Source: a phage. From it: 64,000 nt of DNA. Made by a program: the position numbers and the translations under genes. The notes under the pieces are model-generated. The model was not told the origin of the DNA and ran no database searches. It saw only the letters and a program-made list of their open reading frames with translations. Of the stretch, positions 1-63,786 are shown one piece after another (the stretch's first letter is position 1; the number at the start of each line of letters is the position of its first letter). The DNA lies in the sequence record PX441839.1, one strand, 5' to 3'.

Positions 1-2769
1 ACACTGGAAATTCGGCAAGGTGCTCTGTATGTGCGCCCACAAGAGACCCAGATCTCTCAAGATCCTGCAAACAAGATTGAACTGAAACCTGACGGTATCT
101 TTGTAGAAACCGTAAAAGGTGATAAGGGAGATACAGGTGAGCAAGGACCAGCAGGTCCAGAAGGTCCTCAGGGTCCAGCAGGTAAAGACGGCGCACCTGG
201 TGTAGAAGGTCCTCGTGGACCAGAAGGTGAAAGAGGTCCGGCTGGAATCGGCATCAATGTTATTGCTCAGTTGGCAACTGTTGATCAGCTTCCTCCTGTA
301 GAGAACTACGAAGATGGTGACACCTTCGTTATTGATGGTCACTTCTGGACTAAAACTACAGTAGGTGATACATCCCAGTGGACTGATGTCGGATCTTTCA
401 TTGGACCAGAAGGTCTGGATGCCTATGAGGTTGCTGTACAAGATGGTTTCGAAGGTACAGTTGATGAATGGTTGGCAAGCCTTCGTGGTGCTGACGGTAT
501 CGGTCTGCAACTCTTAGGTTCATTCAGAAGCGTTGATGACCTCCCAATGGAAGATAACAAGGCAGGTGATGCCTATATCGTCCAAGAGCAGATGTGGGTT
601 TGGGACACTGTTCAGTGGGCACCTGTTGGACAGGTTGGCCCAGAAGGTAAGTCAGCGTATCAAGTTTGGTTGGCTAATGGTAACACTGGTTCGCAGAATG
701 ACTTCTTGGCATCCTTAAAAGGAGAGAAAGGAGACAAGGGCGATAAAGGTGATAAAGGAGACAAGGGTGAAGACGGTAAGAACGCCAACGCCGTAAACAT
801 TCTTGGATCTGTTGAAACCGAGGCTGACCTTCCTGACGGTGCTGATGCCGGGGACGCATACCTGATCGGAGAGAACGTATGGGTATCCGATGGCGCAGGT
901 AAATGGACAGACCTTGGCTCTTTCCGTGGTCCAGAAGGTCCTCGTGGAGTACCTGGTGAAAAGGGTGACAAGGGCGATACTGGTGCTCAAGGTGGTACAG
1001 GTAAGAGCAACTATGACCTCGCTGTAGAGGAAGGATTCACTGGAACTGTTGCCGAATATTTGGAATCCATCAAGGGTGAAAAAGGAGACCAAGGTCCACA
1101 AGGTCCTCGTGGACTGACCGGACCTAAAGGCGACAAAGGTGACACTGGAACAGGACTTACAGTTAAAGGATCTGTTGCATCTGTAGAAGACCTACCTGCT
1201 GCTGGAAATGCAGAAGGTGATGCCTATTTCGTTGGTACTCATATGTATGTTTTCCTGTCTGGTGCATGGGAAGATGTCGGTGAGTTGAAAGGTGAAAAAG
1301 GCGATAAGGGTGACACAGGACCTAAGGGAGATACAGGCCCACAGGGTCCAGCGGGTGAGCGTGGTCCTCAGGGTGTTCAAGGTCTTAAAGGCGACACTGG
1401 CCCAGTGGGTCCTCAAGGACCAGCAGGTAGGGACGGTGTAGACGGTACAAACGGAACCGATGGTAAAGACGGAACAGGTCTGATGCCAAAAGGCACCGTT
1501 GCAACTCAGGCGGATCTCCCTGCAACTGGTAATTCTATCGGTGATTTTTATACGGTAGAAGAGGAAGGAAGGGGTTACGCTTGGAACGGAACAGAGTGGA
1601 TCTACTCCGGTGTGGCTCAGGGTCCTCAAGGACCAGCGGGTGAAAACGGTGCTGATGGTGCTACAGGTCCTCAAGGCCCACAGGGTCCTAAGGGTGACAA
1701 AGGAGACATGGGGCAAGGTATTCTGCCGAAGGGAACTGTCCCGACTCAGGCTGACCTTCCTACCGAAAACAATGAAATTGGTGACTTCTATGTTGCTGAT
1801 GACACTGGAATCGGTTACGCTTGGAATGGCACAACCTTCATTAACTCTGGGATTTCTCGTGGTAAAGACGGGGAACAAGGTCCACAGGGTGAACAGGGTA
1901 TTCAAGGTGAGCAGGGTCCTGCTGGTCCTAAGGGAGATACGGGGGATACTGGTCCTCAAGGCCCACAGGGGGATATTGGCCCAGGTGTAGAAATCATCGG
2001 TAAGCTGAATGATCCTTCTGAACTTCCGGCAACCGGAGAACTTGGTCAAGGATACCTGATCGAGGGTGACTTCTGGGGTTGGACAGGTCAAGCTTACGAG
2101 AACTTGGGACAGATTCGCGGACCTGCGGGTCCGGTTGGTCCACAAGGGAACCCAGGTCCTGTAGGTGAGCAGGGTGTTCGTGGTGAGAAGGGTGATCAAG
2201 GCTCCTTATGGATCGTCTTTGGTAGAGAACCTACTCCTGCTGATGGTCGCGTAGGTGACTACTTCATGAACTCTTCCACTCTGGAGTTCTTCCGTAAGAC
2301 TTCTGCAACCAACTGGGCATCTCTTGGTTACATGGGTGGCGGTAACGTCTACGATGCACCTAAAGATGGGAAGCAGTACACCCGTTTAGATGGTGATTGG
2401 GAAGTTCTTTCTGTTACTGAGGCACCTGAGGACGGTGGGTACTACATCCGTACCAATGGTCAATGGCAAAAATTAGATCGTTACGACCTCCGTGTTGTTG
2501 AAACTACAGGTGCTATGGACGTATCTGTGAGTAACTGCTTCAAGGTTGACGGGACGGCTAATAAAACCATGTCTCTCACAGGACTCCCTCCTGACAGGGC
2601 GATGACTATTGTTATTCGCTTCTTGGGTAAAGGGGCGCAGTTGACTTGGCCTTCAAACCTTGCTTGGTCAAATGGTACACCTCCTGCTCTTGGCACAACC
2701 CGTACAGTGGTAACTCTGTTCTGGGACGGTGAATTCCTGACTGGGACTCAGGCGATGACTGTTGACTAA
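1..2769 (+). CDS. collagen-like repeat fiber protein (5-prime partial)
   Basis: ORF 31..2769 has no in-frame stop back to the window edge. Long Gly-X-Y tracts ([25 protein letters not shown]...) are interrupted by at least 6 copies of a ~50-aa module (DLP...GD.Y...W.W.G). TAA stop is followed by a terminator. Confidence 0.8.
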   Translation, partial: TLEIRQGALYVRPQETQISQDPANKIELKPDGIFVETVKGDKGDTGEQGPAGPEGPQGPAGKDGAPGVEGPRGPEGERGPAGIGINVIAQLATVDQLPPVENYEDGDTFVIDGHFWTKTTVGDTSQWTDVGSFIGPEGLDAYEVAVQDGFEGTVDEWLASLRGADGIGLQLLGSFRSVDDLPMEDNKAGDAYIVQEQMWVWDTVQWAPVGQVGPEGKSAYQVWLANGNTGSQNDFLASLKGEKGDKGDKGDKGDKGEDGKNANAVNILGSVETEADLPDGADAGDAYLIGENVWVSDGAGKWTDLGSFRGPEGPRGVPGEKGDKGDTGAQGGTGKSNYDLAVEEGFTGTVAEYLESIKGEKGDQGPQGPRGLTGPKGDKGDTGTGLTVKGSVASVEDLPAAGNAEGDAYFVGTHMYVFLSGAWEDVGELKGEKGDKGDTGPKGDTGPQGPAGERGPQGVQGLKGDTGPVGPQGPAGRDGVDGTNGTDGKDGTGLMPKGTVATQADLPATGNSIGDFYTVEEEGRGYAWNGTEWIYSGVAQGPQGPAGENGADGATGPQGPQGPKGDKGDMGQGILPKGTVPTQADLPTENNEIGDFYVADDTGIGYAWNGTTFINSGISRGKDGEQGPQGEQGIQGEQGPAGPKGDTGDTGPQGPQGDIGPGVEIIGKLNDPSELPATGELGQGYLIEGDFWGWTGQAYENLGQIRGPAGPVGPQGNPGPVGEQGVRGEKGDQGSLWIVFGREPTPADGRVGDYFMNSSTLEFFRKTSATNWASLGYMGGGNVYDAPKDGKQYTRLDGDWEVLSVTEAPEDGGYYIRTNGQWQKLDRYDLRVVETTGAMDVSVSNCFKVDGTANKTMSLTGLPPDRAMTIVIRFLGKGAQLTWPSNLAWSNGTPPALGTTRTVVTLFWDGEFLTGTQAMTVD

Positions 2770-2775
2770 TAAGCT

Positions 2776-2796
2776 GGGGGCTTCGGCCCCCTTTTT
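2776..2796 (+). terminator. rho-independent terminator
   Basis: GGGGGC-TTCG-GCCCCC hairpin followed by TTTTT, directly after the stop at 2769. Confidence 0.7.
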
Positions 2797-2810
2797 AAAA
2801 GGAGATTTAA

Positions 2811-3461
2811 ATGGCAGTAGATCCAAACAGCAAGATTGAAGCTTGGACACCCATGATCAGAATTTCTGACATGAAATATCCAGTTTACCTGCGTGACTAT
2901 CTTGAGGAGTACAAAAACGTCAGTATCGGGTCTTTCGTGTGGGAAAGCGGGATGCGTGAGGTTGGATACTTTAAAGTCCACGATGTAGAAATCCCTATTG
3001 GGGATGTAGTCGTAGAAGGTGAACCAGCCTATAACGAGGAAGATGAACTTTGGTATAAGACTTGGATTGTCAGGGATTTCACCGAAGAGGAGATTGCTCA
3101 CAATCTCTATATGGCAAAAGAGGACGCTAAGTCTCAAGCTTATCGAATTTTTACCAATGATCAATCTTCCGGTGTTCTGGTAGATGGAGATCAGTTTAAT
3201 GTTGAGCCTCGTGAGATTACCAACTTAAGAGGTACACTCGAACTTGCCAATTTAGCAGGTGATGAGGAGAAGTTTCTTGTTCGCAAGGCAGACTTTTCAA
3301 TTCTGGAGCTTACTGCAAAAGAGACTGTTGAAAAGGTCACAAAAATAATTCTAGAGCAAGGAAAGTTACACCAAGCCCTTCTGAGCCATGTAAAAGAAAT
3401 CATGGATGCGGAAGACAGTGATTTAATCCCACCAACCCCACACACTTTCTTAGGAGAATAA
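2811..3461 (+). CDS. hypothetical protein (structural module)
   Basis: 216-aa ORF, AAAGGAG RBS about 7 nt upstream of ATG, co-oriented with structural genes. Confidence 0.6.
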   Translation: MAVDPNSKIEAWTPMIRISDMKYPVYLRDYLEEYKNVSIGSFVWESGMREVGYFKVHDVEIPIGDVVVEGEPAYNEEDELWYKTWIVRDFTEEEIAHNLYMAKEDAKSQAYRIFTNDQSSGVLVDGDQFNVEPREITNLRGTLELANLAGDEEKFLVRKADFSILELTAKETVEKVTKIILEQGKLHQALLSHVKEIMDAEDSDLIPPTPHTFLGE

Positions 3462-3462
3462 T

Positions 3463-3813
3463 ATGTCTGCAATCGGCGGAACATCTTTAGGTCTGATTAC
3501 TGGCTATGCGATCATGGATCAGTCAACTGGTGAAACAAAAACCATCTCCGAGTTACTCAGTGGTGCTGGGGGCGGCACACCGGGTCCTGTTGGACCTAAG
3601 GGAGATCAGGGTGAAGTTGGACCTCAAGGACCTAAGGGCGACACAGGCCCTGCTGGACCGCAGGGTCCTCAAGGGGAGCAGGGTGTAGGTATTGCACATG
3701 CCAATACAAAAATTGATGGACGTAATGTAACCATTATGTTTACGATGACGGATAACACAGTGAAAGAAGTTGTTTTCACAATTCCTGAACCAACCCCGAC
3801 CCCCTCTGCCTGA
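3463..3813 (+). CDS. small collagen-like repeat protein
   Basis: 116 aa; Gly-X-Y tract [37 protein letters not shown]; AGGAG RBS; start overlaps previous stop (TAATATG). Confidence 0.65.
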   Translation: MSAIGGTSLGLITGYAIMDQSTGETKTISELLSGAGGGTPGPVGPKGDQGEVGPQGPKGDTGPAGPQGPQGEQGVGIAHANTKIDGRNVTIMFTMTDNTVKEVVFTIPEPTPTPSA

Positions 3814-3825
3814 TATATTTACACC

Positions 3826-3848
3826 ACCGCCCTTCGGGGCGGTTTTCT
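3826..3848 (+). terminator. rho-independent terminator
   Basis: ACCGCCC-TTCG-GGGCGGT hairpin followed by a T-run. Confidence 0.6.
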
Positions 3849-3870
3849 TGTATCTGCTTAAGGAGAAATT

Positions 3871-4545
3871 ATGGCAAAGCTTAAGGGTATTACTGGAAAT
3901 CAAAATGGGGTATTCTATGGTTATGCCCTCTATGATTTAAAATCTGAGAAGCTTATTCCTTTTAATGAGATTGGGGTAGGAGGCGGAGAAGCAGAGCAAG
4001 GTCCGGTAGGTCCTGTTGGACCACAAGGACCTAAAGGTGACAAAGGTGATCCTGGACCTCAAGGTTTGAGAGGTCCTCAAGGTCCTCAGGGACCTAAAGG
4101 TGATCCTGGCGCAAAGGGTGATGAAGGGATCGATGGTGCTGTTGGACCACAAGGTCCAAAAGGGGATAGGGGAGAACCAGGACCAGAAGGACCACAAGGT
4201 CCAATCGGACCCCGTGGACCAGTGGGACCTGCGGGAGCGACGGGTCTTAACTGGAAGGGACAGTATTCTGACTCTGTTACTTATCTTCTTGACGACGCTG
4301 TCGCGTTTAATGGTGCAACCTACTTTTCTGTCAAGGAGTCAACAGGGATAAGCCCAGCGGAAGATACAGTTCAAGAATACTGGGCTGTAATGGCAGCTTC
4401 TGGGGTAAAGGGAGACCAAGGTCCACAAGGTCCCGTGGGACCAGTGGGTCCTCAAGGTGAAAGAGGTGAACAGGGTATTCAAGGACCGAGAGGTCCAGTT
4501 GGAGAGACAGGACCTGCTGGACCTCGCGGACCGGAAGGGATTTAG
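3871..4545 (+). CDS. collagen-like repeat protein (ends at in-frame TAG)
   Basis: 224 aa with several Gly-X-Y tracts and a globular insert ([24 protein letters not shown]...). The stop is TAG at 4543-4545 and the same frame continues as collagen-like sequence. Confidence 0.6.
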
Positions 4546-4860
4546 GGACCACAGGGACCTCAAGGTATTCAGGGTCCTCAAGGTAAAAAGGGAGTTAATT
4601 GGAGGGGGAACTGGTTTAGAAACACCACATACACGAAAGATGACGCTGTTTATTTTGAAGGTACGAGTTGGATTTGCGATATAGACCATTCCTCGTCAGA
4701 TGACAATAAACCGGGAAGCCCTCAAAGATTTAAGTGGGCAGTTTTCGCCAAGAAAGGGGAAGACGGTCCTCAAGGACCTGCGGGAGAGCCAAAGAAAATC
4801 AACCATGTACTTCGGAATTGCTCCTGGAAATGGGGTGACATCATTCCTTGGACTTCCTAA
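4546..4860 (+). other. collagen-like reading frame continuing after the TAG, no start codon of its own
   Basis: Same frame as 3871..4545 encodes GPQGPQGIQGPQGKKG, a second copy of the NW.G....TY..DDAV.F.G module, and GEDGPQGPAGEP, then a TAA stop at 4858-4860. Confidence 0.4.
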
Positions 4861-5208: not shown

Positions 5209-5236
5209 AGCCACCTTCGGGTGGCTTTATTTTTTA
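5209..5236 (+). terminator. rho-independent terminator
   Basis: AGCCACC-TTCG-GGTGGCT hairpin followed by TTTATTTTTT. Confidence 0.6.
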
Positions 5237-5833: not shown

Positions 5834-5862
5834 TTGATTTTGCAAAGCTATTGTGGTAAAAT
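5834..5862 (+). promoter_or_regulatory. putative promoter TTGATT-17-TGgTAAAAT
   Basis: Near-consensus -35 TTGATT, 17-nt spacer, TG-extended -10 TAAAAT about 20 nt upstream of the GTG start at 5883. Confidence 0.5.
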
Positions 5863-6357: not shown

Positions 6358-6798
6358 ATGGCTAGGCGATACCTCTTGTTGAGCAACAGGAACCGACTAA
6401 TCCCCCGTATTGAAGTGACGTGCCGCAGAAGATCTGCGGTAAAGACTGATCCAGACAACCCATTTGAAAATGGCTCCTTGGTAATGCAGTATGAGGAGTT
6501 CACCGCAGTGGAGTGTACTGTTCAGCCAATGCGTGGTAAGGCGGCTCGTGATCAGAACAACCAGTTACAGGTGGAAGGTGAAGTTGATTATGATTCCTAC
6601 ACCGTATACTCGGAAACCATTCTGCATCGTGCTCAAGAAGGTACGAACGAGTATTCTGACCAAATGTTACTTCCTGACTCTGTTGGGAAAGATACTTGGT
6701 TCACAGTCATGAAGGCAGATAGGTTTATAAGTTCAGGCGTTTCACGATACAGATACTATCTTATCGCTGTTCCTGAGGGAACAGAGGGAGGAATGTGA
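6358..6798 (+). CDS. hypothetical protein (connector/neck region)
   Basis: ATG at 6358 preceded by AGGGG; the track ORF begins at GTG 6352. Confidence 0.55.
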   Translation: MARRYLLLSNRNRLIPRIEVTCRRRSAVKTDPDNPFENGSLVMQYEEFTAVECTVQPMRGKAARDQNNQLQVEGEVDYDSYTVYSETILHRAQEGTNEYSDQMLLPDSVGKDTWFTVMKADRFISSGVSRYRYYLIAVPEGTEGGM

Positions 6799-7376
6799 TG
6801 AGTGATGTACCTATCACAGGACTTCCCTTTACAAATTCCGACGAGGTTATGGACTCGCTTACCAAAACCATTGGTAGGTTATGTGCCCAAGTGACAAACT
6901 ACAAAGTTGTTGAGGCAGATGATACACTACCTAAGGTGGATGGTCCATTCATTCTTGTAGATCTTTCATCTTTAGATCCCCTCGACTGGAAATCCGCAGA
7001 ATTGGTAGATGAGCAGGGTAGATATCATGCTGTTCATAACTACCAAGCGACATACACACTTACAGCTTATCGTGGAAAACCACATTGGGCCTTGTCAAGG
7101 GTTATGCAATCTTTCGGCTTGCAATTCATCTATGATAAGTTTTTCCCTTACGGGTCCCCTTATGCATATTCATCGTCTTCAACTATTGCACGGTTGCGTA
7201 TTCCGTTGAATGCCCAATATTTTGAAAATAGGGCACGAGTTCAGATTACCTTCAACGTAGCATTTGTGGAAGGCGATTTTGGTCTGTTTGAGGATCTGGA
7301 AGGAATTAGCATTGACATGGGTGTTGAATACCCAGGCGGGAAGTTGGAAGTTCCTGTAGAGGTGGAGACGGAGTAA
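6798..7376 (+). CDS. hypothetical protein (possible tail completion)
   Basis: ATG 6798 overlaps the previous stop (ATGTGATG); GAGGGAGG RBS. Confidence 0.55.
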   Translation: MSDVPITGLPFTNSDEVMDSLTKTIGRLCAQVTNYKVVEADDTLPKVDGPFILVDLSSLDPLDWKSAELVDEQGRYHAVHNYQATYTLTAYRGKPHWALSRVMQSFGLQFIYDKFFPYGSPYAYSSSSTIARLRIPLNAQYFENRARVQITFNVAFVEGDFGLFEDLEGISIDMGVEYPGGKLEVPVEVETE

Positions 7377-7381
7377 TCCGG

Positions 7382-7430
7382 TTATTGATAGGCATTGCTT
7401 ATCAGTGACAAATCAAGGGGCTTCGGCCCC
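7382..7430 (+). promoter_or_regulatory. inverted repeat plus GC hairpin upstream of the sheath gene
   Basis: TTGATAGGcattgCTTATCAg imperfect palindrome, then GGGGC-TTCG-GCCCC hairpin with no following T-tract. Confidence 0.3.
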
Positions 7431-7479
7431 ATATTGGCACAGAAGTGCTTAGTCAATAATCGTTCAAGTAGAGGACAAC

Positions 7480-8895
7480 ATGGCTTATAATGATAAGGTA
7501 GTTGAAGTTGAGGTCAACCTCGGCACCCAGCCTATTAGCACGGCAGGGTTTGAAACTCCGATGTTCCTTGCAATTCACAACGTATTCCCAGAGCGTGTGA
7601 GATTCTATATCTCCACGGAATCTATGGTGGAAGATGGTTTTGCAGTTGGATCTCCGGCACACCAGTTTGCAACAAACGCATTCATGGGTAACTTCAAGCC
7701 AAGCATGATTGCTATTGGTAGAATGGCTCAGTCTGCTGTCAAGGTAGATTTCACTGGCACAACCAACACTGATCGGGTTGTTGTTAACCTGACTGTAAAC
7801 AGGGTTGTAAAAGCTGTTCAGTTAACTCCGGCACCTGGTTCAACACCAGCGGCAATTGCAACTGCATTGGCAACTGCAATTACAGAAGACCAAGACCTCC
7901 CAACCATTACCGCAGTTGCTAACGGAACTTCTGTTACCATCACCGCAGGTGAAGGTGATGTGATGAGTGTTGGTAAGGGAGAGGGAAATTACAAGGTAGT
8001 TTCTGAATCACCGGAGACTGTGGCAACTGCACTTCCTCAAGTAATGGCAGAAAACCACGACTGGTATTTCCTGTCAACAGAGGCACGATCTGATGCAGAT
8101 ATTGTTGCAGCGGCGGAGTTCGCACAGGCAAACTACAAGCTACATGTTTTCAACAGTTCAGACCCCGATGCCTATGCACCGATGAATGTCAGTGCTTCTG
8201 TTTTTGACACCCTGAAAGCTCTGAGCTACACTTCTTTAGGAACAACTGATGCTGATGCGGATGTTGAGTTCACAGAAGGTTCAGTTGTTGGTGCGATGGC
8301 AGGTAATGACCCATCATATGGTGATTCTCTGCACCTGAAAACCATGCCTGGTATGAAGCCTTTCCAAGGTTCAGAAACCCAGCGTATGAATGCTTGGAAT
8401 AGGAACGCAAACACGTATCGTGCCATGTATGGCGGTAACAGCTACATCGAGGGTCGTGTTTCAAACTCTCAGTATGTTGACGTTATTCGCTTCTCACACT
8501 GGGTTAAATTCCGTATGGAAGAGTCCCTGTTTGCGTACATGAAGCGTCGTTCCGATATGGGTCTGTCAATGAAGATGTCAGACGCAGATCTTCCAGTAAT
8601 TAAATCTGTTCTGATGAACAACCCGATCAACATCGGTATCCGTAATGGCGGGATCTTGACTGGCTATGACTCTGTGAATAAGGTCATGTATGACCCGATT
8701 ATCACTGTGCCACGTCGAGCAGAGATCCCAACCAACGATCTTGCTAACCGTATCCTGCGTGATGTTAAAGTTGACTTAGTTTACAACAACTCACTGCATT
8801 ACGTCAAGATTCGTGCTTCTGTGGTTCTCGACCGTCCAGCAGGTCAAGGCACTAATGCCCAGACCCCTATGACCTCTTCCGCTGTAGGAGTGTAA
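7480..8895 (+). CDS. putative tail sheath protein
   Basis: 471 aa; assigned from gene order only (large protein, then 160-aa protein, then frameshifted chaperone, then tape measure); no sheath motif recognised. Confidence 0.6.
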   Translation: MAYNDKVVEVEVNLGTQPISTAGFETPMFLAIHNVFPERVRFYISTESMVEDGFAVGSPAHQFATNAFMGNFKPSMIAIGRMAQSAVKVDFTGTTNTDRVVVNLTVNRVVKAVQLTPAPGSTPAAIATALATAITEDQDLPTITAVANGTSVTITAGEGDVMSVGKGEGNYKVVSESPETVATALPQVMAENHDWYFLSTEARSDADIVAAAEFAQANYKLHVFNSSDPDAYAPMNVSASVFDTLKALSYTSLGTTDADADVEFTEGSVVGAMAGNDPSYGDSLHLKTMPGMKPFQGSETQRMNAWNRNANTYRAMYGGNSYIEGRVSNSQYVDVIRFSHWVKFRMEESLFAYMKRRSDMGLSMKMSDADLPVIKSVLMNNPINIGIRNGGILTGYDSVNKVMYDPIITVPRRAEIPTNDLANRILRDVKVDLVYNNSLHYVKIRASVVLDRPAGQGTNAQTPMTSSAVGV

Positions 8896-9381: not shown

Positions 9382-9457
9382 TAACTCGTGAGCCACAAGG
9401 ATGTGGCCTTTATTCACAGAAGGATTTAGCTACTTATCTGACACAGGAGTGTACACG

Positions 9458-12726: not shown

Positions 12727-12729
12727 CAA

Positions 12730-12751
12730 GGGGGCTTCGGCCCCCTTTTTT
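12730..12751 (+). terminator. rho-independent terminator
   Basis: GGGGGC-TTCG-GCCCCC hairpin followed by TTTTTT. Confidence 0.7.
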
Positions 12752-12759
12752 ATTGGTCG

Positions 12760-12776
12760 GCTTCATGGTAAAATAC
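12760..12776 (+). promoter_or_regulatory. putative extended -10 promoter element (TGgTAAAAT)
   Basis: Same TGnTAAAAT motif as at 5854-5862, about 20 nt upstream of the 12794 gene. Confidence 0.35.
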
Positions 12777-16191: not shown

Positions 16192-16198
16192 TAATAAA

Positions 16199-16224
16199 GG
16201 GAGCTTCGGCTCCCTTTTCTTTTA
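16199..16224 (+). terminator. rho-independent terminator
   Basis: GGGAGC-TTCG-GCTCCC hairpin followed by TTTTCTTTT. Confidence 0.7.
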
Positions 16225-16225
16225 A

Positions 16226-16250
16226 TTCGTATCTGAATATGATAAAATAC
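16226..16250 (+). promoter_or_regulatory. putative extended -10 promoter element (TGaTAAAAT)
   Basis: TGnTAAAAT motif between the terminator and the 16286 gene. Confidence 0.4.
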
Positions 16251-29306: not shown

Positions 29307-29371
29307 GGTGAAATCTCCTTTCATTAAGTTATGGGTCTATTATATAAGACCCACCTCAATTAAGTCAACAC

Positions 29372-34958: not shown

Positions 34959-35062
34959 TTGTTATCCCTCTTTCGTTTGGTATGGGATCATTATGAGGGT
35001 TCTGAGCAAGGAAGTCAACACCTTTCTGCAAATAAAAAGGCCACCCGAAGGTGGCCTTAATT

Positions 35063-35455: not shown

Positions 35456-35495
35456 ATTTGTTCTCCTCAGTAATAAGTGATTTCGTGTTAATTAT

Positions 35496-35511
35496 GGGGC
35501 CTTTCGGCCCC
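35496..35511 (-). terminator. GC hairpin without U-tract (possible terminator or processing site)
   Basis: GGGGCC-tttc-GGCCCC between the 35520..37538 gene and the 35063..35455 gene. Confidence 0.35.
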
Positions 35512-35519
35512 GTTGTCAA

Positions 35520-37883: not shown

Positions 37884-38088
37884 CTTGAATCCCTAATCGC
37901 TCCTGCGGGGTAGCTTCTTTGAAGCCTTCCCCCATCATTTTACGAAGTTGATACTGAGTCATTGCAGATTTAATGGTCTCTTCGTAACACTCGATTTCAA
38001 CTGTAAACTTGACGATTTTCTTATCAGTCATGTTGGCCCCCTTTGTGCTTCGATGGGTGTATATTACCAGCTTTGATCTTGAAGTCAA
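37849..38088 (-). CDS. hypothetical protein
   Basis: 79-aa ORF. Confidence 0.45.
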   Translation of the reverse strand: MTSRSKLVIYTHRSTKGANMTDKKIVKFTVEIECYEETIKSAMTQYQLRKMMGEGFKEATPQERLGIQVAKAYMERKVV

Positions 38089-38102: not shown

Positions 38103-38128
38103 AAAAAACCGCCCCGAAGGGCGGTTTT
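38103..38128 (-). terminator. rho-independent terminator (end of the leader-family cassette)
   Basis: AAAAAACCGCCC-cgaa-GGGCGGTTTT; on the minus strand the hairpin is followed by a T-run directly after the stop of the 38131 gene. Confidence 0.65.
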
Positions 38129-40719: not shown

Positions 40720-40745
40720 ACCTCAATAAGACGCCCCGAAGGGCG
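40720..40745 (-). terminator. intra-cassette hairpin (possible attenuator)
   Basis: ACGCCC-cgaa-GGGCGT hairpin between the 40752 gene stop and the 40713 start. Confidence 0.4.
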
Positions 40746-40751
40746 TGTGAC

Positions 40752-43824: not shown

Positions 43825-43847
43825 AAAGGGGCCGAAGCCCCTTTTTT
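43825..43847. terminator. bidirectional terminator hairpin
   Basis: AAA-GGGGC-cgaa-GCCCC-TTTTTT between the DNA polymerase exon 2 and the leader cassette. Confidence 0.6.
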
Positions 43848-43862
43848 CTTTGTACAGAGGGT

Positions 43863-43895
43863 ATTTTAACACGGACGCTTTGAATTATCCACAAG
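43863..43895 (-). promoter_or_regulatory. putative extended -10 promoter (TGtTAAAAT) for the leader cassette
   Basis: Minus-strand TGTTAAAAT just upstream of the terminator hairpin and the 43806 gene; -35 is weak. Confidence 0.3.
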
Positions 43896-43928: not shown

Positions 43929-44228
43929 TCAGTGACATTGCCCCCAATTAAGTCCTGTCAGATACTCACCTGTGATATGTACAGGTGCCTTCATCATCTT
44001 AGCTGCTTGTTCAACGCAACGAACAACCATTTCACCGACAGGGCAGTAGATGATAGTGAATATTCCATTCTCATCGGGGTCGCACTTAAACTTACCTTCC
44101 TTGACACAATGACCATCCAGAACCATACGCTTCTTGAGGCAATCCTCAACAAAAGCTTTTGCTTCGACTTCATTGTCAAACTTCCATTCCTTCTTGAACT
44201 TATTTGGAACTTCAAGCTGGTATTCATC
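43929..44228 (-). CDS. DNA polymerase family A, exon 2 (C-terminal end)
   Basis: Begins at DEYQLEVP (second half of the Pol A motif C, HDE...E.P) and ends ...TGLNWGQCH, like the Pol I C-terminus; the leading Met of the track ORF is probably intron-derived. Confidence 0.6.
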   Translation of the reverse strand, partial: DEYQLEVPNKFKKEWKFDNEVEAKAFVEDCLKKRMVLDGHCVKEGKFKCDPDENGIFTIIYCPVGEMVVRCVEQAAKMMKAPVHITGEYLTGLNWGQCH

Positions 44229-44998
44229 CAAAGTTTAGCAGGTTCGTTAATCCTGCCCACACCATTACGTGTTGCCATACGGTTTCCCGTAGGATCGGAC
44301 TATATCACCACCCTTTTCAGGGTGCTCCCCATTTCGACGCCACTTGGTCGCCTACGCCTCTCGGCTAGTCTCTGAACGTTAAGACCACGTATACTTCTCG
44401 GAAATATGCTTCCACTGCCGACGCTGCTTAATGGCTCGTACTGTTGCATAGGGGAATCCCATGTCGCGTACCTCTGCCTGGCTCATTCCGCTTTCAAGAA
44501 GCTGGCAAATGGTCATCACTTCGTCTTCTGTGAGGGCACTATTAGCATTGTTGATACCTTCCGCGCTGCGACAGTTGTGGCGATAGGCGTTCTCTATGTT
44601 TTTGCCTCTCGTAACCCACTGTAGGTTGTCTTTGTGGTTATTCCTTTTATCGGGCCACTTGTGATCAACCTCTGGAAGATTGTTCGGATTGGGAACAAAA
44701 CATTCTGCCACCAAAACATGGACCGCCTTTGTCGTCGCCTTTTTGTTAAGGTAAAGACTGACAATTGCATACCCTCTTCCATTATCAACATGCTTCATAG
44801 GTTTACCTCGACGACCTATAATGGTCCCGTCCTCGTAAACTTTATATCCGAAATAGTCTTTGTACTCCACGTAGTCCTCTTCGCTGCTGATTAACATAGC
44901 TGCACTTTAGTTTATTATTAACCCAGTGTCAACCTTAGCCTTCCAGCAATTAAAGGAGTTTTCGATGTAGGTTGCCCTACAAAGCCACAATGTTACTT
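44229..44998 (-). mobile_element. group I-like intron in the DNA polymerase gene, carrying an HNH homing endonuclease ORF
   Basis: About 770 nt separate the exon 1 end (...VRRIIYYH) from exon 2 (DEYQLEVP), splitting motif C. It contains an HNH ORF and an 80-nt core conserved with the second intron. Boundaries approximate. Confidence 0.55.
44379..44897 (-). CDS. HNH homing endonuclease
   Basis: 172 aa; HVLVAECFVPNPNNLPEVDHKWPDKRNNHKDNLQWVTRGKN is an HNH-type motif; lies between the polymerase fragments. Confidence 0.75.
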   Translation of the reverse strand: MLISSEEDYVEYKDYFGYKVYEDGTIIGRRGKPMKHVDNGRGYAIVSLYLNKKATTKAVHVLVAECFVPNPNNLPEVDHKWPDKRNNHKDNLQWVTRGKNIENAYRHNCRSAEGINNANSALTEDEVMTICQLLESGMSQAEVRDMGFPYATVRAIKQRRQWKHISEKYTWS

Positions 44999-47326
44999 AT
45001 GGTAATAGATAATACGACGAACTCCCTCGTCATACCATCCCTTCTTGACCAGTTGCCAGTGAAGCAAGATTCCAACCAGGTCAAATAGTGCTGCACCACC
45101 ATTCTGCTGAAATGCGTTCAACAGGGAGTGCTTTGAACGAGTCCAAATCTTACGCCCATCCAAACCATAGATGAATCTTTTCCCTGTCGCTTCCCAGAAT
45201 TTCTCCAGCGCTTCTTTACGACCTTTTAATCCGATGTTGCTATCCCAGAATGCGTTGATTACATCCTGTGCCTTATCTACTGTGATTCCAAGCATGGATG
45301 CAATCTTGGGTGCCTGAGCGCCGTACATGATTCCATACGTGATACTCTTTCCCTCGCCACGAGAAACCTTCTTCCCCGCTGCCTTTGTGTATGCCTCTGC
45401 GTTTCGGGTGTGGGCGTCCCCCGACTCCATGATTTCAAGGTAAGCGCCACCATCGAACTCATACGCACCCCAAGCCGCAATCATACCTTCCAGGTTAGAA
45501 CCATCAATACCCACTTGGTACTTACCCTTTGGTGCTCGCCAAAGGGAACGCATCTCATAACCAAACAACACCTTCGGATCAGGCTTAGGCATGTTTGCGC
45601 AGATCGTGTGCTTACGACGCCCAGTGTTGGTAATCCCTGAGAACCTTGCTGGTAATCGACCATCAATCTTCAAGCGTGGGTGGTTAAGAAGTCCAGTATC
45701 AACCTTATCCTCTTTCAGTGGATCAAGGACAGATCGTCGGTTACGTGCAGATAACCACTGAACAATGCCTTTAGCCATCGCACCATCCACCTTTTCCAAG
45801 TTTGGGCACAATCCCTGCTGGTCTTTCAACTGAGGGCTTGTTGGCAATGCACGGGCCTTCTTACGGAAGAATTTGAACATCTTCTCCTTGTCTGCCCACT
45901 GCTTAGGGGTAATGTGCAAGTTCTTAAGGATAAGATCACGATATTCTGTCTGATCTAGTTGCTCAATATACTCCCGCACAATTGCATCAACTTCACCATC
46001 CGGACGTTGCTTTTTAAACTGGTCCTTTGTTGCATCCTTTGTACGCCAAATTGTTGGAATCCAACCCGCATCTCGGATGAGGAACTTCTTAACATCATCC
46101 TGGTTACCGATACGCATCGGAATCATTATATCTGGCATGGTCTTATTCTTCAAGTCCGCCAAAGCCCGTGCCATATCCTCTGGAGGTAGTGGCTCCAGTG
46201 TGGATTGTTTTTCGTTCTGACTACGAATGAACTGAGGCATTTGATCCTCATCTTCCACCCCGTGGTCATTACAGTATTTAATAGCCGCAGCCGTAAGTGA
46301 ACCATCTGCCTTAAATGCTTTAGCCGGAGGCCCCTTGAAATCAAGGGCTTCCCAATTAATATTGTATCCTAACTTCTCCAGCCATTTCCAACCTGTGCCG
46401 GACAATGTCCCGTCACCCTTGAAAGGTTTGGATGGGAAAGTTGGTTGTGCGGATTTAGCCATCTCTTTCTTCGGAAGCTGAGGCTCAACCTCTTCCTCAA
46501 TCTTCTTCATGAAGGCATCAACCGTATCGCGGAGTTTCAGCGCCGCCTCTATGTCAAAATCAACACCTTGGATTTCTTGCTCAATCATCAGGTAATCGGT
46601 AAGCATACCTCGACGAAGAGAGTCTTTCCAGTTGATCATTTTATATTTTGTTGGGACACGCTCATCTTTAAACATGAAGCGTTTATCATCTGGGTACGCA
46701 TCGCAGGTGATTTCCTTCATAAGGGCGTCCCACACCTTTTCGTTGATGATAACGTCCTCAATGATACGGTCACAATACTTCCACAACGGGAGTCCACGCC
46801 AATCATCAATGGCGACTTTCAGGTTGGCTACTCTCATACCCCATGCTTCCAGACCATGAGGGCCAACAGGTTTCATCTTTCCTGTGACAGGGTTTTTAAC
46901 CATTTCTGGGCAACCCTTCGGCAATGGGCGGTCAGGGTAGAGTGTACGAGACATAGACAAGGAGTCAAACAGGTTAACCTGTTTTCCATTGATCGTTCCC
47001 ATGCACTTAGGATCGGCAAACATATCGTATTGTGTACCGAACAGCTTCTTGAACAGACGTAAGTCATATCCAAACAAGTTGTGAATAACAATGCTACTAG
47101 GGACTTCTGTGAACCATCTATTAAGGTCAGAGAAGTTCATTACATGCAGATTGAATCCCTTCGCATTAACGAAGTTCAAAGCCTCTTGATAACCCTCTCG
47201 CGCTGGGTCCATGAAGAGATACCAGTTATCCTTTTTGTACTCCTTGAAGAGGATGCAGTGAGCATGTAAGTTCTCCTCGTCAAGTAAACCAGATGCTTCC
47301 GCATCACCTACCCATAAACCTTTCAT
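44999..47326 (-). CDS. DNA polymerase family A, exon 1 (3-5 exonuclease and polymerase domains through the start of motif C)
   Basis: Motif A-like DGSNLEGM (D.S..E), motif B-like KSITYGIMYGA (K...YG..YG), N-terminal exonuclease-like region; ORF ends abruptly at ...VRRIIYYH-K-stop inside motif C. Confidence 0.8.
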
Positions 47327-51187: not shown

Positions 51188-51214
51188 AAAAAGGCCCCCG
51201 AAGGGACCTTTTAT
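51188..51214 (-). terminator. putative terminator after helicase exon 2
   Basis: AAAAAAGGCCCC-cgaa-GGGACCTTTT, imperfect stem with flanking A and T runs. Confidence 0.4.
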
Positions 51215-57640: not shown

Positions 57641-57698
57641 GAGGACTCCTAAAATAATAAAGGCCCAGTGTACTTAACTGGGCCAGTGTGTCAATAGC

Positions 57699-62779: not shown

Positions 62780-63786
62780 TTCTTTCCTCGCTTCTTAAGT
62801 TTGTTGTGTCCATTACCACGGCGAATCTTCACCTGTTTCCAATCTTTTACTGGCTTTTCCACCTCGGCAATAGCGGAAAATTCATCAATGATATTTTTGC
62901 CAATTGGTTTACCAGCCTCCAGCAGTGCAACTTTATTGTATTTGGACATAAGGGTTTTTACCTTCTCAGAATCTAAAATTTCAACATTAGACAGATCCAT
63001 GTCCTCTTTCCTCGCACCATACATTGTTTGGTACATTGCCGTCTTTAATGCAGTTTTTGTCCCAAAGTAAATTTCAACCTTGTACTCAGAAGCCAGCCTA
63101 ATCAACCTCTTCATTACAGAGTCTATATTGTTAATTGAGGATGCACAACCCGGTACTGACTCTACAAAAATAGGTGTCATGGGCCAACCTGTGTACTCAA
63201 CAGTTGCTTTTGTTCTTTCCAGCATACACTCTAACCTTGTAAATTCATCTGGGTCTTCGACAAGGTCCGTAATTTTGAAAATAACAGGATGCTTGGTGGG
63301 AATATCCTGCATACATAGCTTCTCCAGTTCTTCCCAATCAACGCCGCTCTCCATGTCTAAATACAAATCACCATCCTTTGGGATCGACAATGTCTTTCCA
63401 GATGGGGATGTATTAGGGAGATAATTATAGTTAAGCCGACCAGTTGGTCTACCGTCCCGTTTTTTAATGAAGTCAGCGTAGAGTTTATCACCATCCTCTA
63501 ACACCTCATCAAACCAGACAAAACTGTTTACACCCAACTGATCGGTATCAGAAGTGAACTCAGATCCGGGGGTAGCGATAGCCCTTACATTTTTCAAATG
63601 ATCACGAAAGAAAGGATCTGGAATAAAGAATTCCCTGCTTAGAAACATTCTTGATTTATTCTCATCTTCGTGGGTTGAGATGAGGGATTCTTCAAAATCA
63701 TGACCTTTGGATTTGTAATTCATAAGTTTTAATTCCTTGTTTTGTTTTGATAAGGGGATATTACTCCCCTTTCTGACTCGTGTCAA
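62776..63786 (-). CDS. hypothetical protein
   Basis: 336-aa ORF; no family recognised. Confidence 0.5.
   Translation of the reverse strand: MTRVRKGSNIPLSKQNKELKLMNYKSKGHDFEESLISTHEDENKSRMFLSREFFIPDPFFRDHLKNVRAIATPGSEFTSDTDQLGVNSFVWFDEVLEDGDKLYADFIKKRDGRPTGRLNYNYLPNTSPSGKTLSIPKDGDLYLDMESGVDWEELEKLCMQDIPTKHPVIFKITDLVEDPDEFTRLECMLERTKATVEYTGWPMTPIFVESVPGCASSINNIDSVMKRLIRLASEYKVEIYFGTKTALKTAMYQTMYGARKEDMDLSNVEILDSEKVKTLMSKYNKVALLEAGKPIGKNIIDEFSAIAEVEKPVKDWKQVKIRRGNGHNKLKKRGKK

Follow-up and report, generated by a model that had tools for sequence, protein, structure and literature searches.

Introduction

Structured intergenic RNAs ahead of strongly expressed genes are known from several phages. 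The RNase III sites of T7 (R0.3, R1.1 and others) and the lambda N leader each consist of one long, irregular hairpin whose coaxial helix is ~20 bp, and processing at sites of this type leaves the upstream fragment with a protective hairpin at its 3′ end. In T4, the mRNA of gene 32 is cut by RNase E 71 nt upstream of the start codon; the upstream part decays fast and the gene 32 mRNA is very stable (PMC3014915). T4 mRNA is also where C(UUCG)G hairpins were discovered, which have been proposed to act as folding nucleators and whose loops are reported not to be bound by proteins (PMC4371310). For the Vequintavirinae, we found no transcriptomics in the literature, only genome papers with promoters and terminators predicted in silico.

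Here we analyzed a 64,000-nucleotide stretch of phage DNA (the window), which comes from a Vequintavirinae-like myophage whose nearest relative is Salmonella phage SSBI34. The recurrent UUCG hairpins of this phage are two things: what look like ordinary terminators or 3′-end stabilizers, and a hairpin at 7417 that belongs to a leader of the tail sheath gene. The coordinates of all features are given in Table 1.

Results

Recurrent UUCG hairpins in the window

The recurrence of GC-clamped UUCG hairpins, proposed by a first-pass annotation made from the sequence, was borne out by comparison with 200 dinucleotide-preserving shuffles of the window. Perfect hairpins with a TTCG or CGAA loop and a stem of at least 5 occur 11 times, compared to a mean of 0.3 and a maximum of 3 by chance, and a strict 16-mer hairpin pattern has 5 matches where 0.14 are expected. 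The strand of the local genes carries UUCG, never CGAA, in 10 of 10 GC-rich perfect hairpins, and the hairpin at 51189-51212, which includes one G.U pair, is an 11th sense-strand UUCG hairpin. Plus-strand copies begin at 2776, 3826, 5209, 7417, 12728 and 16196, while those at 38128..38105, 40746..40731 and 43844..43825 on the minus strand were confirmed from the earlier list. That list placed two of these at about 38103 and about 40720, where the actual spans are 38105-38128 and 40731-40746, and the hairpins at 35037-35058 and 51189-51212 had been overlooked.

Eight of the sense-strand C(UUCG)G hairpins look like intrinsic terminators or 3′-end stabilizers closing short transcription units, as in T4 and many coliphages. 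Each lies 2-13 nt past a stop codon and has a U-rich tail; the stems have energies of -10 to -18 kcal/mol, 5-7 U are found in the next 8 nt, and promoter-like motifs then follow. With a U-tract taken as about 5 or more U among the 8 nt directly 3′ of the stem, one is present at 2776, 3826, 5209, 12728, 16196, 35037 and 51189, and at 38105 only when U's of the stem are counted. The view that most copies are classic terminators fits this sequence pattern of stable stems, positions just past stops and U-rich tails, except that the tails at 40731 and 43825 are weaker. An extended -10 promoter-like site (43891..43863) precedes the latter hairpin, and an RBS follows it after 5 nt; a better U-tract is present on the opposite strand, and the SSBI34 counterpart has a full U-tract.

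In their GC stem, C-G closing pair and sense-strand UUCG loop, the hairpins of the window resemble those of T4 mRNA and the Rho-independent terminators of coliphages, as they do in their intergenic location just past stop codons, with U-rich tails in 8 of the 11. The GGGGC-UUCG-GCCCC core is also found by BLAST in T4-like and Klebsiella phage genomes, and the terminator-like hairpins are already-known textbook material. Unlike them, the copy at 7417 has no U-tract and lies in the middle of a 103-nt spacer with two more conserved hairpins alongside, and its relatives in other phages differ in stem sequence and sometimes carry a GNRA loop.

Table 1. Positions of hairpins, leader parts and promoter-like sites in the window.
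Feature	Coordinates	Strand	Remarks
C(UUCG)G terminator-like hairpin	2776..2791	+	tail UUUUUAAA; 7 nt past stop codon at 2769
C(UUCG)G terminator-like hairpin	3826..3843	+	tail UUUCUUGU; SSBI34 loop is CUCG
C(UUCG)G terminator-like hairpin	5209..5226	+	tail UUAUUUUU
Extended -10 sigma70-type promoter-like site	5834..5862	+	TTGATT-N17-(TGg)TAAAAT; upstream of Neck1 gene
Conserved structured RNA leader, 89 nt, three hairpins	7377..7465	+	between ORF 6795..7376 and tail sheath gene 7480..8895
Hairpin 1	7381..7409	+	GUUAUUGAUAGGC-AUU-GCUUAUCAGUGAC; 13 bp, 3 G.U pairs, -14.1 kcal/mol
Hairpin 2 (flagged GC clamp)	7417..7430	+	GGGGC-UUCG-GCCCC; 5 G-C pairs, -9.6 kcal/mol
A/U-rich single-stranded linker	7431..7435	+	AUAUU; between hairpins 2 and 3; candidate endonuclease entry site
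Hairpin 3	7436..7449	+	GGCAC-AGAA-GUGCU; -5.2 kcal/mol
Invariant tail	7452..7463	+	GUCAAUAAUCGU; nucleotides invariant in alignment
Shine-Dalgarno and tail sheath ATG	7470..7482	+	AGAGGA
C(UUCG)G terminator-like hairpin	12728..12747	+	after tape measure gene; then motif TGGTAAAATAC at 12766
C(UUCG)G terminator-like hairpin	16196..16217	+	then TGATAAAATAC at 16240
C(UUCG)G terminator-like hairpin	35037..35058	-	tail UUUAUUUG; absent from earlier list
Sigma70-type promoter match with spacer hairpin	35491..35519	-	TTGACA-N17-CATAAT; 11/12 consensus matches; spacer holds GGGGCC-GAAA-GGCCCC, 35511..35496
C(UUCG)G terminator-like hairpin	38105..38128	-	then TTGACT promoter-like site at 38088
C(UUCG)G hairpin, weak tail	40731..40746	-	tail CUUAUUGA
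C(UUCG)G hairpin, weak tail	43825..43844	-	tail CAAAUAUU after three stem U's
C(UUCG)G terminator-like hairpin, one G.U pair	51189..51212	-	then TTGACA-N17-TATACT promoter-like site; absent from earlier list

A structured RNA leader precedes the tail sheath gene

The hairpin at 7417-7430 is the central hairpin of this leader and probably no terminator. It lies inside an operon, 41 nt past the stop codon of the upstream ORF 6795..7376 (TAA at 7374-7376) and 50 nt before the ATG of an ORF that matches phrog_205 tail sheath (E 5e-105). Its tail, AUAUUGGC, contains 3 U in 8 nt and no U-tract, as the first-pass annotation had stated. The "imperfect palindrome" reported next to it is also real and, read as RNA, forms a 13-bp hairpin with three G.U pairs (7381-7393 paired with 7397-7409). 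The whole leader folds with z = -4.5 against shuffles, and the sheath RBS downstream is mostly unpaired in the predicted ensembles of the 8 homologs folded. An alternative 10-bp helix, P1, pairs 7453-7462 with 7379-7388 and excludes the lower half of hairpin 1.

The leader probably sits within a polycistronic late mRNA starting at the promoter-like site at 5834-5862, the probable start of the leader-containing operon judging from its sequence. This motif recurs in CR3-like and PVP-SE1 loci and resembles the rV5 late-gene motif TggTAaAAtA (PMC3606486), and downstream of it no strong terminator was found until 12728. Upstream of the leader lie low-copy neck and tail-completion genes and downstream of it the high-copy sheath and tube genes.

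Conservation and covariation of the leader

A covariance model built from 7 Seuna/Henunavirus leaders (R1) matched the leader of the window with 48 bits (E 1e-8) and gave no second significant match, either elsewhere in the window or within the ~67 kb searched of SSBI34. The leader was found in 17 distinct sequences from Certre-, Seuna-, Henuna-, Avuna- and Septuaginta-like phages, in a single copy per stretch searched and always directly 5′ of the sheath gene. It is as well conserved as the sheath CDS: identity to other genera is 69-79% for the leader and 68-71% for that CDS, whereas the upstream CDS reaches 48-57%; to SSBI34, the identity of the leader is 100% over the aligned stretch, compared to 88% for the surrounding 6 kb. 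MAFFT and RNAalifold on the raw leaders misaligned hairpin 2, of which only 3 pairs were recovered, and the model-based alignment was used.

Several features of this alignment support an RNA structure. First, standard pairs are present in 98.6% of the pair cells of the 17 homologs, compared to 30-49% when partners are slid by 1-3 columns, and the observed covariation score was reached by 0 of 500 shuffles. Second, hairpin 2 shows compensatory double changes at 5 of its 6 pairs among relatives, with stems such as GGAGGC/GCCUCC, GGGGGA/UCCCCC, AGGGC/GCCCU and GAGGG/CCCUC, and its loop is UUCG, CUCG, GUAA or GCAA, of the UNCG or GNRA type, in 13 of the 17 sequences. Third, the variation in hairpins 1 and 3 always leaves a G.U, G-C or A-U pair on the sense strand, whereas the same changes would be A.C mismatches if read on the antisense strand: hairpin 1 is paired in 97.9% of cells, with one-sided changes at five variable pairs, while hairpin 3 is paired in 100%, with an invariant GCAC/GUGC core and outer pairs changing from G.U to A-U and from U.G to C-G or U-A around a loop of 4-6 nt. 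Loop length is variable in all three hairpins. Lastly, the linker after hairpin 2 is 5-7 nt long and varies in sequence but is 92% A+U across the homologs. Inspection by eye of the Seuna and Certre sequences revealed no tertiary pairs between loops or between linkers that the two groups had in common. In some predicted folds the GUCAAUAA tail pairs with GUUGAC of the sheath CDS, but this pairing is not conserved, and the window has GUUGAA.

The leader family appears restricted to a subset of the Vequintavirinae. Mydovirus phages have the same sheath gene behind a 32-nt spacer with the leader absent, and rV5 has a different leader before its sheath gene, so the element is dispensable in principle. 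A search for related loci by sheath protein returned only 5 close Certrevirus loci. Metagenome scanning for GTGCT-N1-2-GTCAATAAYYGT gave, among the matches listed (at least about 120 loci), a real leader only in L147, a duplicate of L022, and scans of IMG/VR with 5′ and 3′ leader patterns yielded no leaders beyond the known set, the 39 extra loci having no model match. In Certrevirus the upstream ORF runs into the leader and stops in the loop of hairpin 2, and in one contig it reads through the entire leader, so ribosomes must often melt the structure there.

Comparison with known elements

No Rfam 15 family matched the leader at gathering thresholds. The only permissive match, RF03056 RAGATH-35 at 7387-7434, scored 14.1 bits against a gathering threshold of 38.9 (E = 5.4), which is chance level, and the leader is thus not a member. 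ARAGORN found no tRNA or tmRNA in the window, and a tRNA-like cloverleaf, with its 7-nt anticodon and T loops and its short junctions, does not agree with loops of 3-6 nt and a junction of ~15 nt between hairpins 1 and 2 in the four-helix fold. A sigma54 promoter (GG-N10-GC, TGGCAC-N5-TTGC) was rejected: the window and Certrevirus have GG-N9-GC, the spacing follows the loop length of hairpin 3 (4-6 nt), and Seunavirus has CAGCAC, with AG in place of GG. Inspected by eye, TGATAAGC and GCTTATCA are poor matches to IHF, Fur and DnaA-box sites.

A hairpin in a putative promoter spacer at 35496

The hairpin at 35496, also reported to lack a U-tract, is a separate case, in which a GAAA-loop hairpin is packed into the spacer of a near-consensus, putative sigma70-type promoter. 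The absence of a U-tract was confirmed (tail AUAAUUAA, 3 U in 8 nt). Its assignment to the UUCG hairpins did not hold: the plus strand at 35496-35511 reads GGGGCC-TTTC-GGCCCC, and the transcribed minus strand, GGGGCC-GAAA-GGCCCC, has a GNRA loop. Of the sigma70-type promoter matches in the region, the best is the one whose spacer this hairpin occupies. The whole 29-nt module (35491..35519) is identical in Certrevirus CR8/CR3 except for one spacer base, and is also present in Seunavirus GEC_vB_MG, before an unrelated gene and again identical but for one spacer base.

Discussion

Our preferred reading, which we hold tentatively and at slightly less than even chances, is that the leader serves as a processing and stability module for the late mRNA. 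The extra-stable GC hairpin 2 would fold first, insulating the leader and blocking 3′-exonucleases; the A/U-rich linker just 3′ of it would offer entry to an endonuclease such as RNase E; and hairpin 3, then at or near the new 5′ end, would protect the sheath-tube mRNA, with the RBS unstructured throughout. The outcome would be that the message for sheath and tube exceeds the upstream message. An A/U-rich single-stranded segment between stable stem-loops, as in an RNase E-processed leader of the T4 gene 32 type, is present at 7431-7435 and in the 17 homologs. Judged by eye, the RNase E consensus (RN|WUU) can be read only in the linkers of the window, of the CR3 type and of a few others, and not in those of Seuna/Henuna sequences, and a plain three-hairpin stability module does not account for the invariant GUCAAUAA tail and the invariant GGUUAUUG arm. 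A role as an RNA processing or stability element had been among the first suggestions for the 7417 hairpin and is the direction best supported, although only two of the three hairpins of the leader had been seen. The other suggestion, a protein-binding site, was not sustained: sequence, stem length and loop of this hairpin vary freely while pairing is kept, and C(UUCG)G loops have been described as protein-free (PMC4371310).

Among known systems, the leader is like that of T4 gene 32, and more broadly like stabilizing or processing hairpins between the cistrons of polycistronic mRNAs, in that it precedes a highly expressed gene in polycistronic transcripts, is conserved across related phages and has an A/U-rich single-stranded segment beside stem-loops, from which differential stability of the upstream and downstream message would be expected. 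The two share no sequence or structural homology, cleavage would be the putative step here, and the autoregulatory pseudoknot that also controls T4 gene 32 has no visible counterpart in the sheath leader. With the T7 R-sites and the lambda N leader it shares the placement of structured intergenic RNA before strongly expressed phage genes. Unlike those RNase III sites of ~20 bp, it has no helix longer than the 13-14 bp of hairpin 1, or the 15 bp that P1 would reach by stacking on a short hairpin 1. Helices of 13-15 bp are shorter than classical RNase III sites but not below the known minimal substrates.

An unlikely alternative is a bistable RNA switch or translational operator in which the 5′ arm GGUUAUUGA pairs either with UCAGUGAC to form the long hairpin 1 or with UCAAUAAUCG, 65 nt downstream, to form P1, which would close a four-way junction adjacent to the RBS; the state, and with it the level of sheath translation, would be set by a protein, by translation upstream or by the kinetics of folding. 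None of the 17 sequences has lost either of these mutually exclusive helices: P1 is 100% paired, its 4 changes being one-sided wobble changes, the lower hairpin 1 (7381-7388 with 7402-7409) is fully paired save one terminal pair, and all variation consists of C/U wobble changes opposite G's. The three segments are otherwise invariant across genera, as would follow from a double constraint on pairing. Between the two folds the energy difference is 0-6.6 kcal/mol, P1 is within the minimum-energy fold of Hena1 and L018, and it would end 18 nt ahead of the AUG. However, neither P1 nor the lower hairpin 1 has any compensatory double change, so covariation cannot tell pairing from plain sequence conservation in these helices. 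The predictions leave the RBS open in either state, with no expression platform hiding it and no U-tract terminator formed; where the upstream ORF stops relative to the 5′ arm differs among homologs (-8 to -2, +39, +47 or +107); and no ligand or protein is known as a candidate. In its fullest form, which we consider equally improbable, the leader would toggle between UCAGUGAC and UCAAUAAUCG with the GC tetraloop hairpin as a folding nucleator separating the states, and upstream translation or a phage or host RNA-binding factor would set the ratio of sheath and tube to neck protein.

It is also improbable that hairpin 2 and its A/U-rich tail act as a leaky terminator or pause site, halting a fraction of polymerases as an attenuator before the sheath gene. 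In the window, the terminators at 2776, 12730 and 43825 have a core identical to this hairpin, a composition of 92% A+U is seen in linkers everywhere, and the 152.9-kb contig L018 has GGGGC-GUAA-GCCCC followed by UUUUCUU, a canonical U-tract. Yet the linkers are A-rich, not U-rich, in 16 of the 17 sequences (60% A, 32% U), and the hairpin stands 41 nt past the stop with 3 U in 8 nt, compared to 2-13 nt and 5-7 U for the terminators of the window. No promoter-like element follows it, and a scan of the plus strand for terminators did not list it. Termination here would reduce the most abundant tail proteins relative to the low-copy upstream proteins, and it would leave the conserved hairpins 1 and 3 and the invariant tail unexplained.

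We consider very unlikely an internal sheath promoter with a GC hairpin in its spacer (GTGACA ... CATATT), similar to the module at 35496. With that module, this phage already has one GC hairpin inside a promoter spacer, GTGACA at 7405-7410 is a 5/6 match to the -35 element, and some Seunavirus leaders have a perfect TATAAT directly after hairpin 2. Against this, the spacer separating GTGACA from CATATT measures 19 nt in the window and ranges over 17-21 nt in relatives; the best combinations with 16-18 nt spacers reach only 6-9 of 12, A2 or T6 of the -10 is missing in 11 of the 17, and a -35 element is lacking in Seunavirus (TCGTAT). Transcription starting 7 nt past the linker would begin inside hairpin 3, whose pairing is conserved. 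The promoter consensus scan did not list the 7417 site, and the late-type motif TGGTAAAATA, present at 5854, 10192, 12766 and 16240, is absent from 7377-7479, as is the late-type extended -10 motif from the leaders of the Seuna and Certre loci examined.

Lastly, a DNA-level element, either an operator for a dimeric protein at the palindromes or a cluster of ssDNA hairpins such as a priming signal, is most improbable: the GCAC/GTGC palindrome is invariant, as are three TTAKTGA near-repeats, two in direct and one in inverted orientation, and the overlap of the Certrevirus upstream ORF counts in its favor since RNA structure would often be melted there, but spacers within the palindromes vary (3-4, 3-7 and 4-6 nt) as does the distance of the outer repeats, substitutions are exactly those that RNA wobble pairing tolerates on the sense strand, hairpin 2 keeps its structure and not its sequence, and loops belong to the RNA-typical UNCG/GNRA classes, the extra stability of the UUCG loop being specific to RNA.

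The leader of the sheath gene is a compact, covariation-supported RNA element at the boundary between low-copy and high-copy tail genes, and would represent a new motif within a known kind of RNA element; if the bistable arrangement of hairpin 1 and P1 were true, it would be a new class of phage late-gene riboregulator. The putative promoter with a spacer hairpin at 35496 is a second small design feature of this phage. The phages that carry the leader form a widely used therapeutic and biocontrol group that includes PVP-SE1, CR3, phiTE and SSBI34 relatives. For this group, the leader is a candidate new Rfam family, could serve as a portable mRNA insulator or stabilizer part, and offers a testable handle on the stoichiometry of myophage structural proteins within one operon.

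Genome context

The window comes from a Vequintavirinae myophage. Among database records, Salmonella phage SSBI34 is the closest to it, with 88% nucleotide identity over 6 kb, and more distant relatives fall in Certre-, Seuna-, Henuna-, Mydo- and Vequintavirus. Structural genes occupy the plus strand to ~27650; thereafter early and replication genes lie on the minus strand. The tail sheath is encoded by the ORF at 7480..8895 (phrog_205, E 5e-105), preceded by ORFs for a Neck1/tail-completion protein, a minor head protein and an unknown protein, and followed by an ORF for a tube-like virion protein. The family-A DNA polymerase gene is divided into 777-aa and ~100-aa parts by a group I intron (Rfam RF00028, 54 bits) bearing an HNH-like ORF, whose match to Pfam HNH_3 (E 9e-5) falls just short of the cut-off; ORFs in this region are 44379..44897(-), 44993..47326(-) and 43929..44231(-), and the SSBI34 homolog is a single unbroken 875-aa ORF. 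Many short GGTCC/GGACC palindromes at ~140-4800 (+) lie within the long ORFs for structural proteins (31..2769, 3871..4545 and others); they seem to arise from repeated Gly-Pro-type (GGT CCN) codons and not to be RNA signals.

Hairpins, promoters and other features of the window
Position	Strand	Feature	Remarks
2776, 3826, 5209, 12728, 16196	+	C(UUCG)G hairpins	terminator-like
38128..38105, 35058..35037	-	C(UUCG)G hairpins	terminator-like
51212..51189	-	C(UUCG)G hairpin, extra copy	terminator-like; one G.U pair
43844..43825, 40746..40731	-	C(UUCG)G hairpins	weaker as terminators
5834-5862	+	extended -10 promoter-like site	TTGATT-N17-TGgTAAAAT; precedes Neck1 gene; conserved in CR3-like and PVP-SE1 loci
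7377-7465	+	sheath leader	
7381-7393 with 7397-7409	+	hairpin 1	13 bp, three G.U pairs
7417-7430	+	hairpin 2, a C(UUCG)G hairpin	GGGGC-UUCG-GCCCC
7436-7449	+	hairpin 3	GGCAC-AGAA-GUGCU
7452-7463	+	invariant GUCAAUAAYYGU	3' of hairpin 3; then short spacer and RBS
9392-9407	+	weak hairpin	GCCACA-AGGA-UGUGGC; -7.8 kcal/mol; tail CUUUAUUC
35491-35519	-	sigma70-type promoter with spacer hairpin	TTGACA-ac-GGGGCC-GAAA-GGCCC-CATAAT
29339-29368, 57662-57694, 63752-63786	-	sigma70-like promoters overlapping hairpins	
44276-45008	-	group I intron	

Recurrent UUCG hairpins

An exact search of both strands of the window for TTCG flanked by stems of at least 4-5 pairs confirmed the first-pass annotation that GC-clamped UUCG hairpins recur. 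They do so far above chance, with 11 perfect hairpins of stem at least 5 compared to a mean of 0.3 (maximum 3) in dinucleotide-preserving shuffles. Among strong-stem tetraloop hairpins, UUCG was the loop in 10 and every other loop occurred at most 3 times. UUCG lay on the strand of the local gene in 10 of 10 GC-rich copies, and CGAA in none, indicating that the signal is strand-specific, as expected for RNA. The annotated list of copies was mostly right, but it overlooked those at 35037-35058 and 51189-51212 and misdescribed 35496-35511, which is not a UUCG copy: its plus strand reads GGGGCC-TTTC-GGCCCC, so that the loop on the minus strand, which is the transcribed one, is GAAA.

That most copies are classic terminators fits the pattern of eight hairpins sharing stable stems (-12 to -16 kcal/mol), a position 2-13 nt past stop codons and 4-7 U in the following 8 nt, with extra U's often inside the stem. 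Judged by these features, they are ordinary 3'-end hairpins or intrinsic terminators such as are already known from T4, in whose mRNA C(UUCG)G hairpins were first found (PMC4371310); BLAST with the 7417 region matched T4-like and Klebsiella phages at the same core, GGGGC-UUCG-GCCCC. Their SSBI34 counterparts retain the stems while the loops drift (UUCG to UUAG twice, to CUCG once). Promoter-like motifs lie 3' of several: TGGTAAAATAC at 12766 and TGATAAAATAC at 16240 fit the rV5 late-gene motif, reported as TggTAaAAtA (PMC3606486), and -35 boxes of TTGAC type after 38105, 35037 and 51189 fit the sigma70-like early promoter reported for Certrevirus (PMC7344957). The two weaker hairpins have the tails CUUAUUGA (40731) and CAAAUAUU (43825); the latter has its better U-tract on the opposite strand, an extended -10 promoter-like site just upstream and an RBS 5 nt further on.

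The hairpin at 35496 (-13.3 kcal/mol) fills the 17-nt spacer of the best sigma70-type match of the early region (11/12), and this module is a different element from the sheath leader. It is conserved as sequence, not through covariation: the 29 nt TTGACA-N-CGGGGCCGAAAGGCCC-CATAAT are identical across genera save one spacer base (N), preceding a homologous gene in CR8 (locus L161) and CR3 (L202) and an unrelated gene in Seunavirus GEC_vB_MG (L162) and one IMG/VR contig (the module loci include L203). This suggests that the promoter cassette is either mobile or under strong constraint. The hairpin would be present in RNA only in read-through transcripts of the upstream 672-aa ORF, which it could stabilise or weakly terminate, and the same DNA may also re-initiate transcription. 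At the three further promoters overlapping hairpins, GGGTCT-TATATAAT-AGACCC carries the -10 in its loop, AAGGGGA-GTAATAT-CCCCTT is another overlapped hairpin, and a further -10 is overlapped by the terminator hairpin 57684..57662. In the early region, the interleaving of terminator and promoter signals seems deliberate.

A conserved RNA structure precedes the sheath gene

The 7417 hairpin lies 41 nt downstream of the stop codon of ORF 6795..7376 and 50 nt upstream of the sheath ATG, and its tail (AUAUUGGC) is indeed no U-tract, as the annotation had it. The whole spacer is conserved in Certrevirus (CR3, CR8, phiTE-like contigs), Seunavirus (PVP-SE1, SPLA5a, LNA4, EspYZU08, GE_vB_MG), Henunavirus (Hena1, pEp_SNUABM_01), Avunavirus (24-2-1 and one IMG/VR contig) and the Septuagintavirus phages A7_1 and A73. 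Among the compared loci, Mydovirus lacks the leader (the spacer is 32 nt in KB57 and Mydo), and the sheath leader of rV5 is a different one. This non-homologous rV5 leader (locus L011, 320-411) contains, by eye, two hairpins, GTAGTGT...ACACTGC and ATATC-CGTGCACA-GATAT, and a GTGCAC core; it may be either an analogue or an element that has diverged strongly. Identity to SSBI34 is 100% along the aligned stretch with the leader in it, in a region that is 88% identical overall; against the other genera, the leader shows 69-79% identity, compared to 68-71% for the sheath gene start and 48-57% for the upstream gene end. The upstream ORF enters the leader in Certrevirus, stopping at a UAA within the GUAA loop of hairpin 2 (CR3, locus L002, 3047-3049; contigs L018, L023 and L026), spans it entirely in contig L022, ending at a UAAUG that overlaps the sheath start, and stops in the linker before hairpin 2 in LNA4 (L004) and L015.

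A covariance model built on seven Seuna/Henuna sequences found exactly one leader per stretch searched, always immediately 5' of the sheath gene. The window leader scored 48 bits (E 1e-8), with no second significant match in the 64-kb window or ~67 kb of SSBI34, and no Rfam family matched it.

The leader folds into three successive hairpins, the first of which is the imperfect palindrome already noticed beside 7417. Across 17 distinct sequences, standard pairs occupied 98.6% of pair cells, compared to 30-49% with partners slid 1-3 columns, and the observed pairing or covariation was reached in 0 of 500 shuffles. The clearest covariation signature is that of hairpin 2, with compensatory double changes at 5 of 6 pairs (GGAGGC/GCCUCC, GGGGGA/UCCCCC, AGGGC/GCCCU, GAGGG/CCCUC), a stem of ~4 to 7 bp among homologs and a UUCG, CUCG, GUAA or GCAA loop in 13 of 17 sequences; selection here is for a stable hairpin, not for sequence. 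Hairpins 1 and 3 vary in loop length and, apart from one double change in hairpin 3, show only one-sided changes that keep G.U, G-C or A-U on the sense strand; the varied pairs would be A.C mismatches on the antisense strand. Because of pairing and covariation, wobble-keeping changes, loop variation and conservation taken together, we regard the leader as established, with high confidence, to be a real and functional sense-strand RNA structure.

A second perfect partner for the invariant 5' arm (7379-7388) lies at 7453-7462. The helix between them, P1, would close a four-way junction, and it excludes the lower half of hairpin 1. All 17 sequences keep P1 paired, with four one-sided wobble changes; its fold lies within 0-6.6 kcal/mol of the hairpin 1 fold, and for two homologs the predicted minimum-energy fold includes it. 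True compensatory changes are seen in neither helix among the 17 sequences, so the two may or may not both form. Such a double pairing constraint would explain three 7-10-nt segments invariant across genera, and the two competing helices are an intriguing but unproven possibility.

Possible functions of the leader

The leader is probably neither a terminator nor a promoter. Neither its U content nor its position is that of a terminator, a genuine U-tract follows hairpin 2 in one homolog only (L018), and it would make little sense to halt transcription just ahead of the tail proteins with the highest abundance. As a sigma70 promoter, GTGACA (7405-7410) and CATATT (7430-7435) would be 19 nt apart, with 17-21 nt in relatives; a -35 is missing altogether in Seunavirus, A2 or T6 is absent from most of the best-fitting -10 hexamers, and a start there would destroy hairpin 3. 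As a sigma54 promoter, its GG-N9-GC spacing follows loop length and Seunavirus lacks the GG. A double-stranded DNA operator is disfavoured by variable spacers in every palindrome and wobble-only substitutions, and no tRNA-like fold was detected in the leader.

The late-type TGGTAAAATA motif was not found in the leader and occurs upstream of neighbouring units. The (TTGAyT-N17-)TGgTAAAATA motif stands upstream of structural gene blocks at 5834-5862, 10192, 12766 and 16240 (+), and also at 43861-43871 (-). It fits the rV5 late-gene motif, yet could be no more than an extended -10 promoter of sigma70 type, not a T4-like late promoter. Since such a motif lies upstream at 5834-5862, none is in the leader and no other strong terminator was found in the window between 5226 and 12728, the leader most likely lies inside a late mRNA that runs from neck through sheath to tube. 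The weak hairpin that immediately follows the tube gene could be where the sheath-tube segment of this mRNA has its 3' end.

The first-pass annotation proposed an RNA processing or stability element at 7417. We favour this role as the most likely, yet only tentatively, as a specific mechanism that may well prove wrong, because a sequence-free, 92% A+U linker of 5-7 nt directly follows hairpin 2, a very stable hairpin flanks it 5' and a conserved one 3', and the sheath RBS is predicted to be open. An endonuclease would cleave within the linker, hairpin 2 would cap the upstream fragment and the sheath-tube fragment would begin with hairpin 3. T4 gene 32 provides the precedent: RNase E cuts its polycistronic mRNAs 71 nt 5' of the start codon, after which the upstream RNA decays fast and the gene 32 mRNA is long-lived (PMC3014915). 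By analogy with the original proposal for UUCG hairpins (PMC4371310), the leader hairpin may also be a folding nucleator. Against processing, some lineages do not conserve the RNase E consensus, the model does not account for the invariant tail, Mydovirus lacks the leader and the Certrevirus upstream ORF runs into it. Whichever its role, the leader is a previously undescribed, covariation-supported RNA element, specific to the sheath gene in a subset of Vequintavirinae, and belongs to the known class of structured intercistronic mRNA elements.
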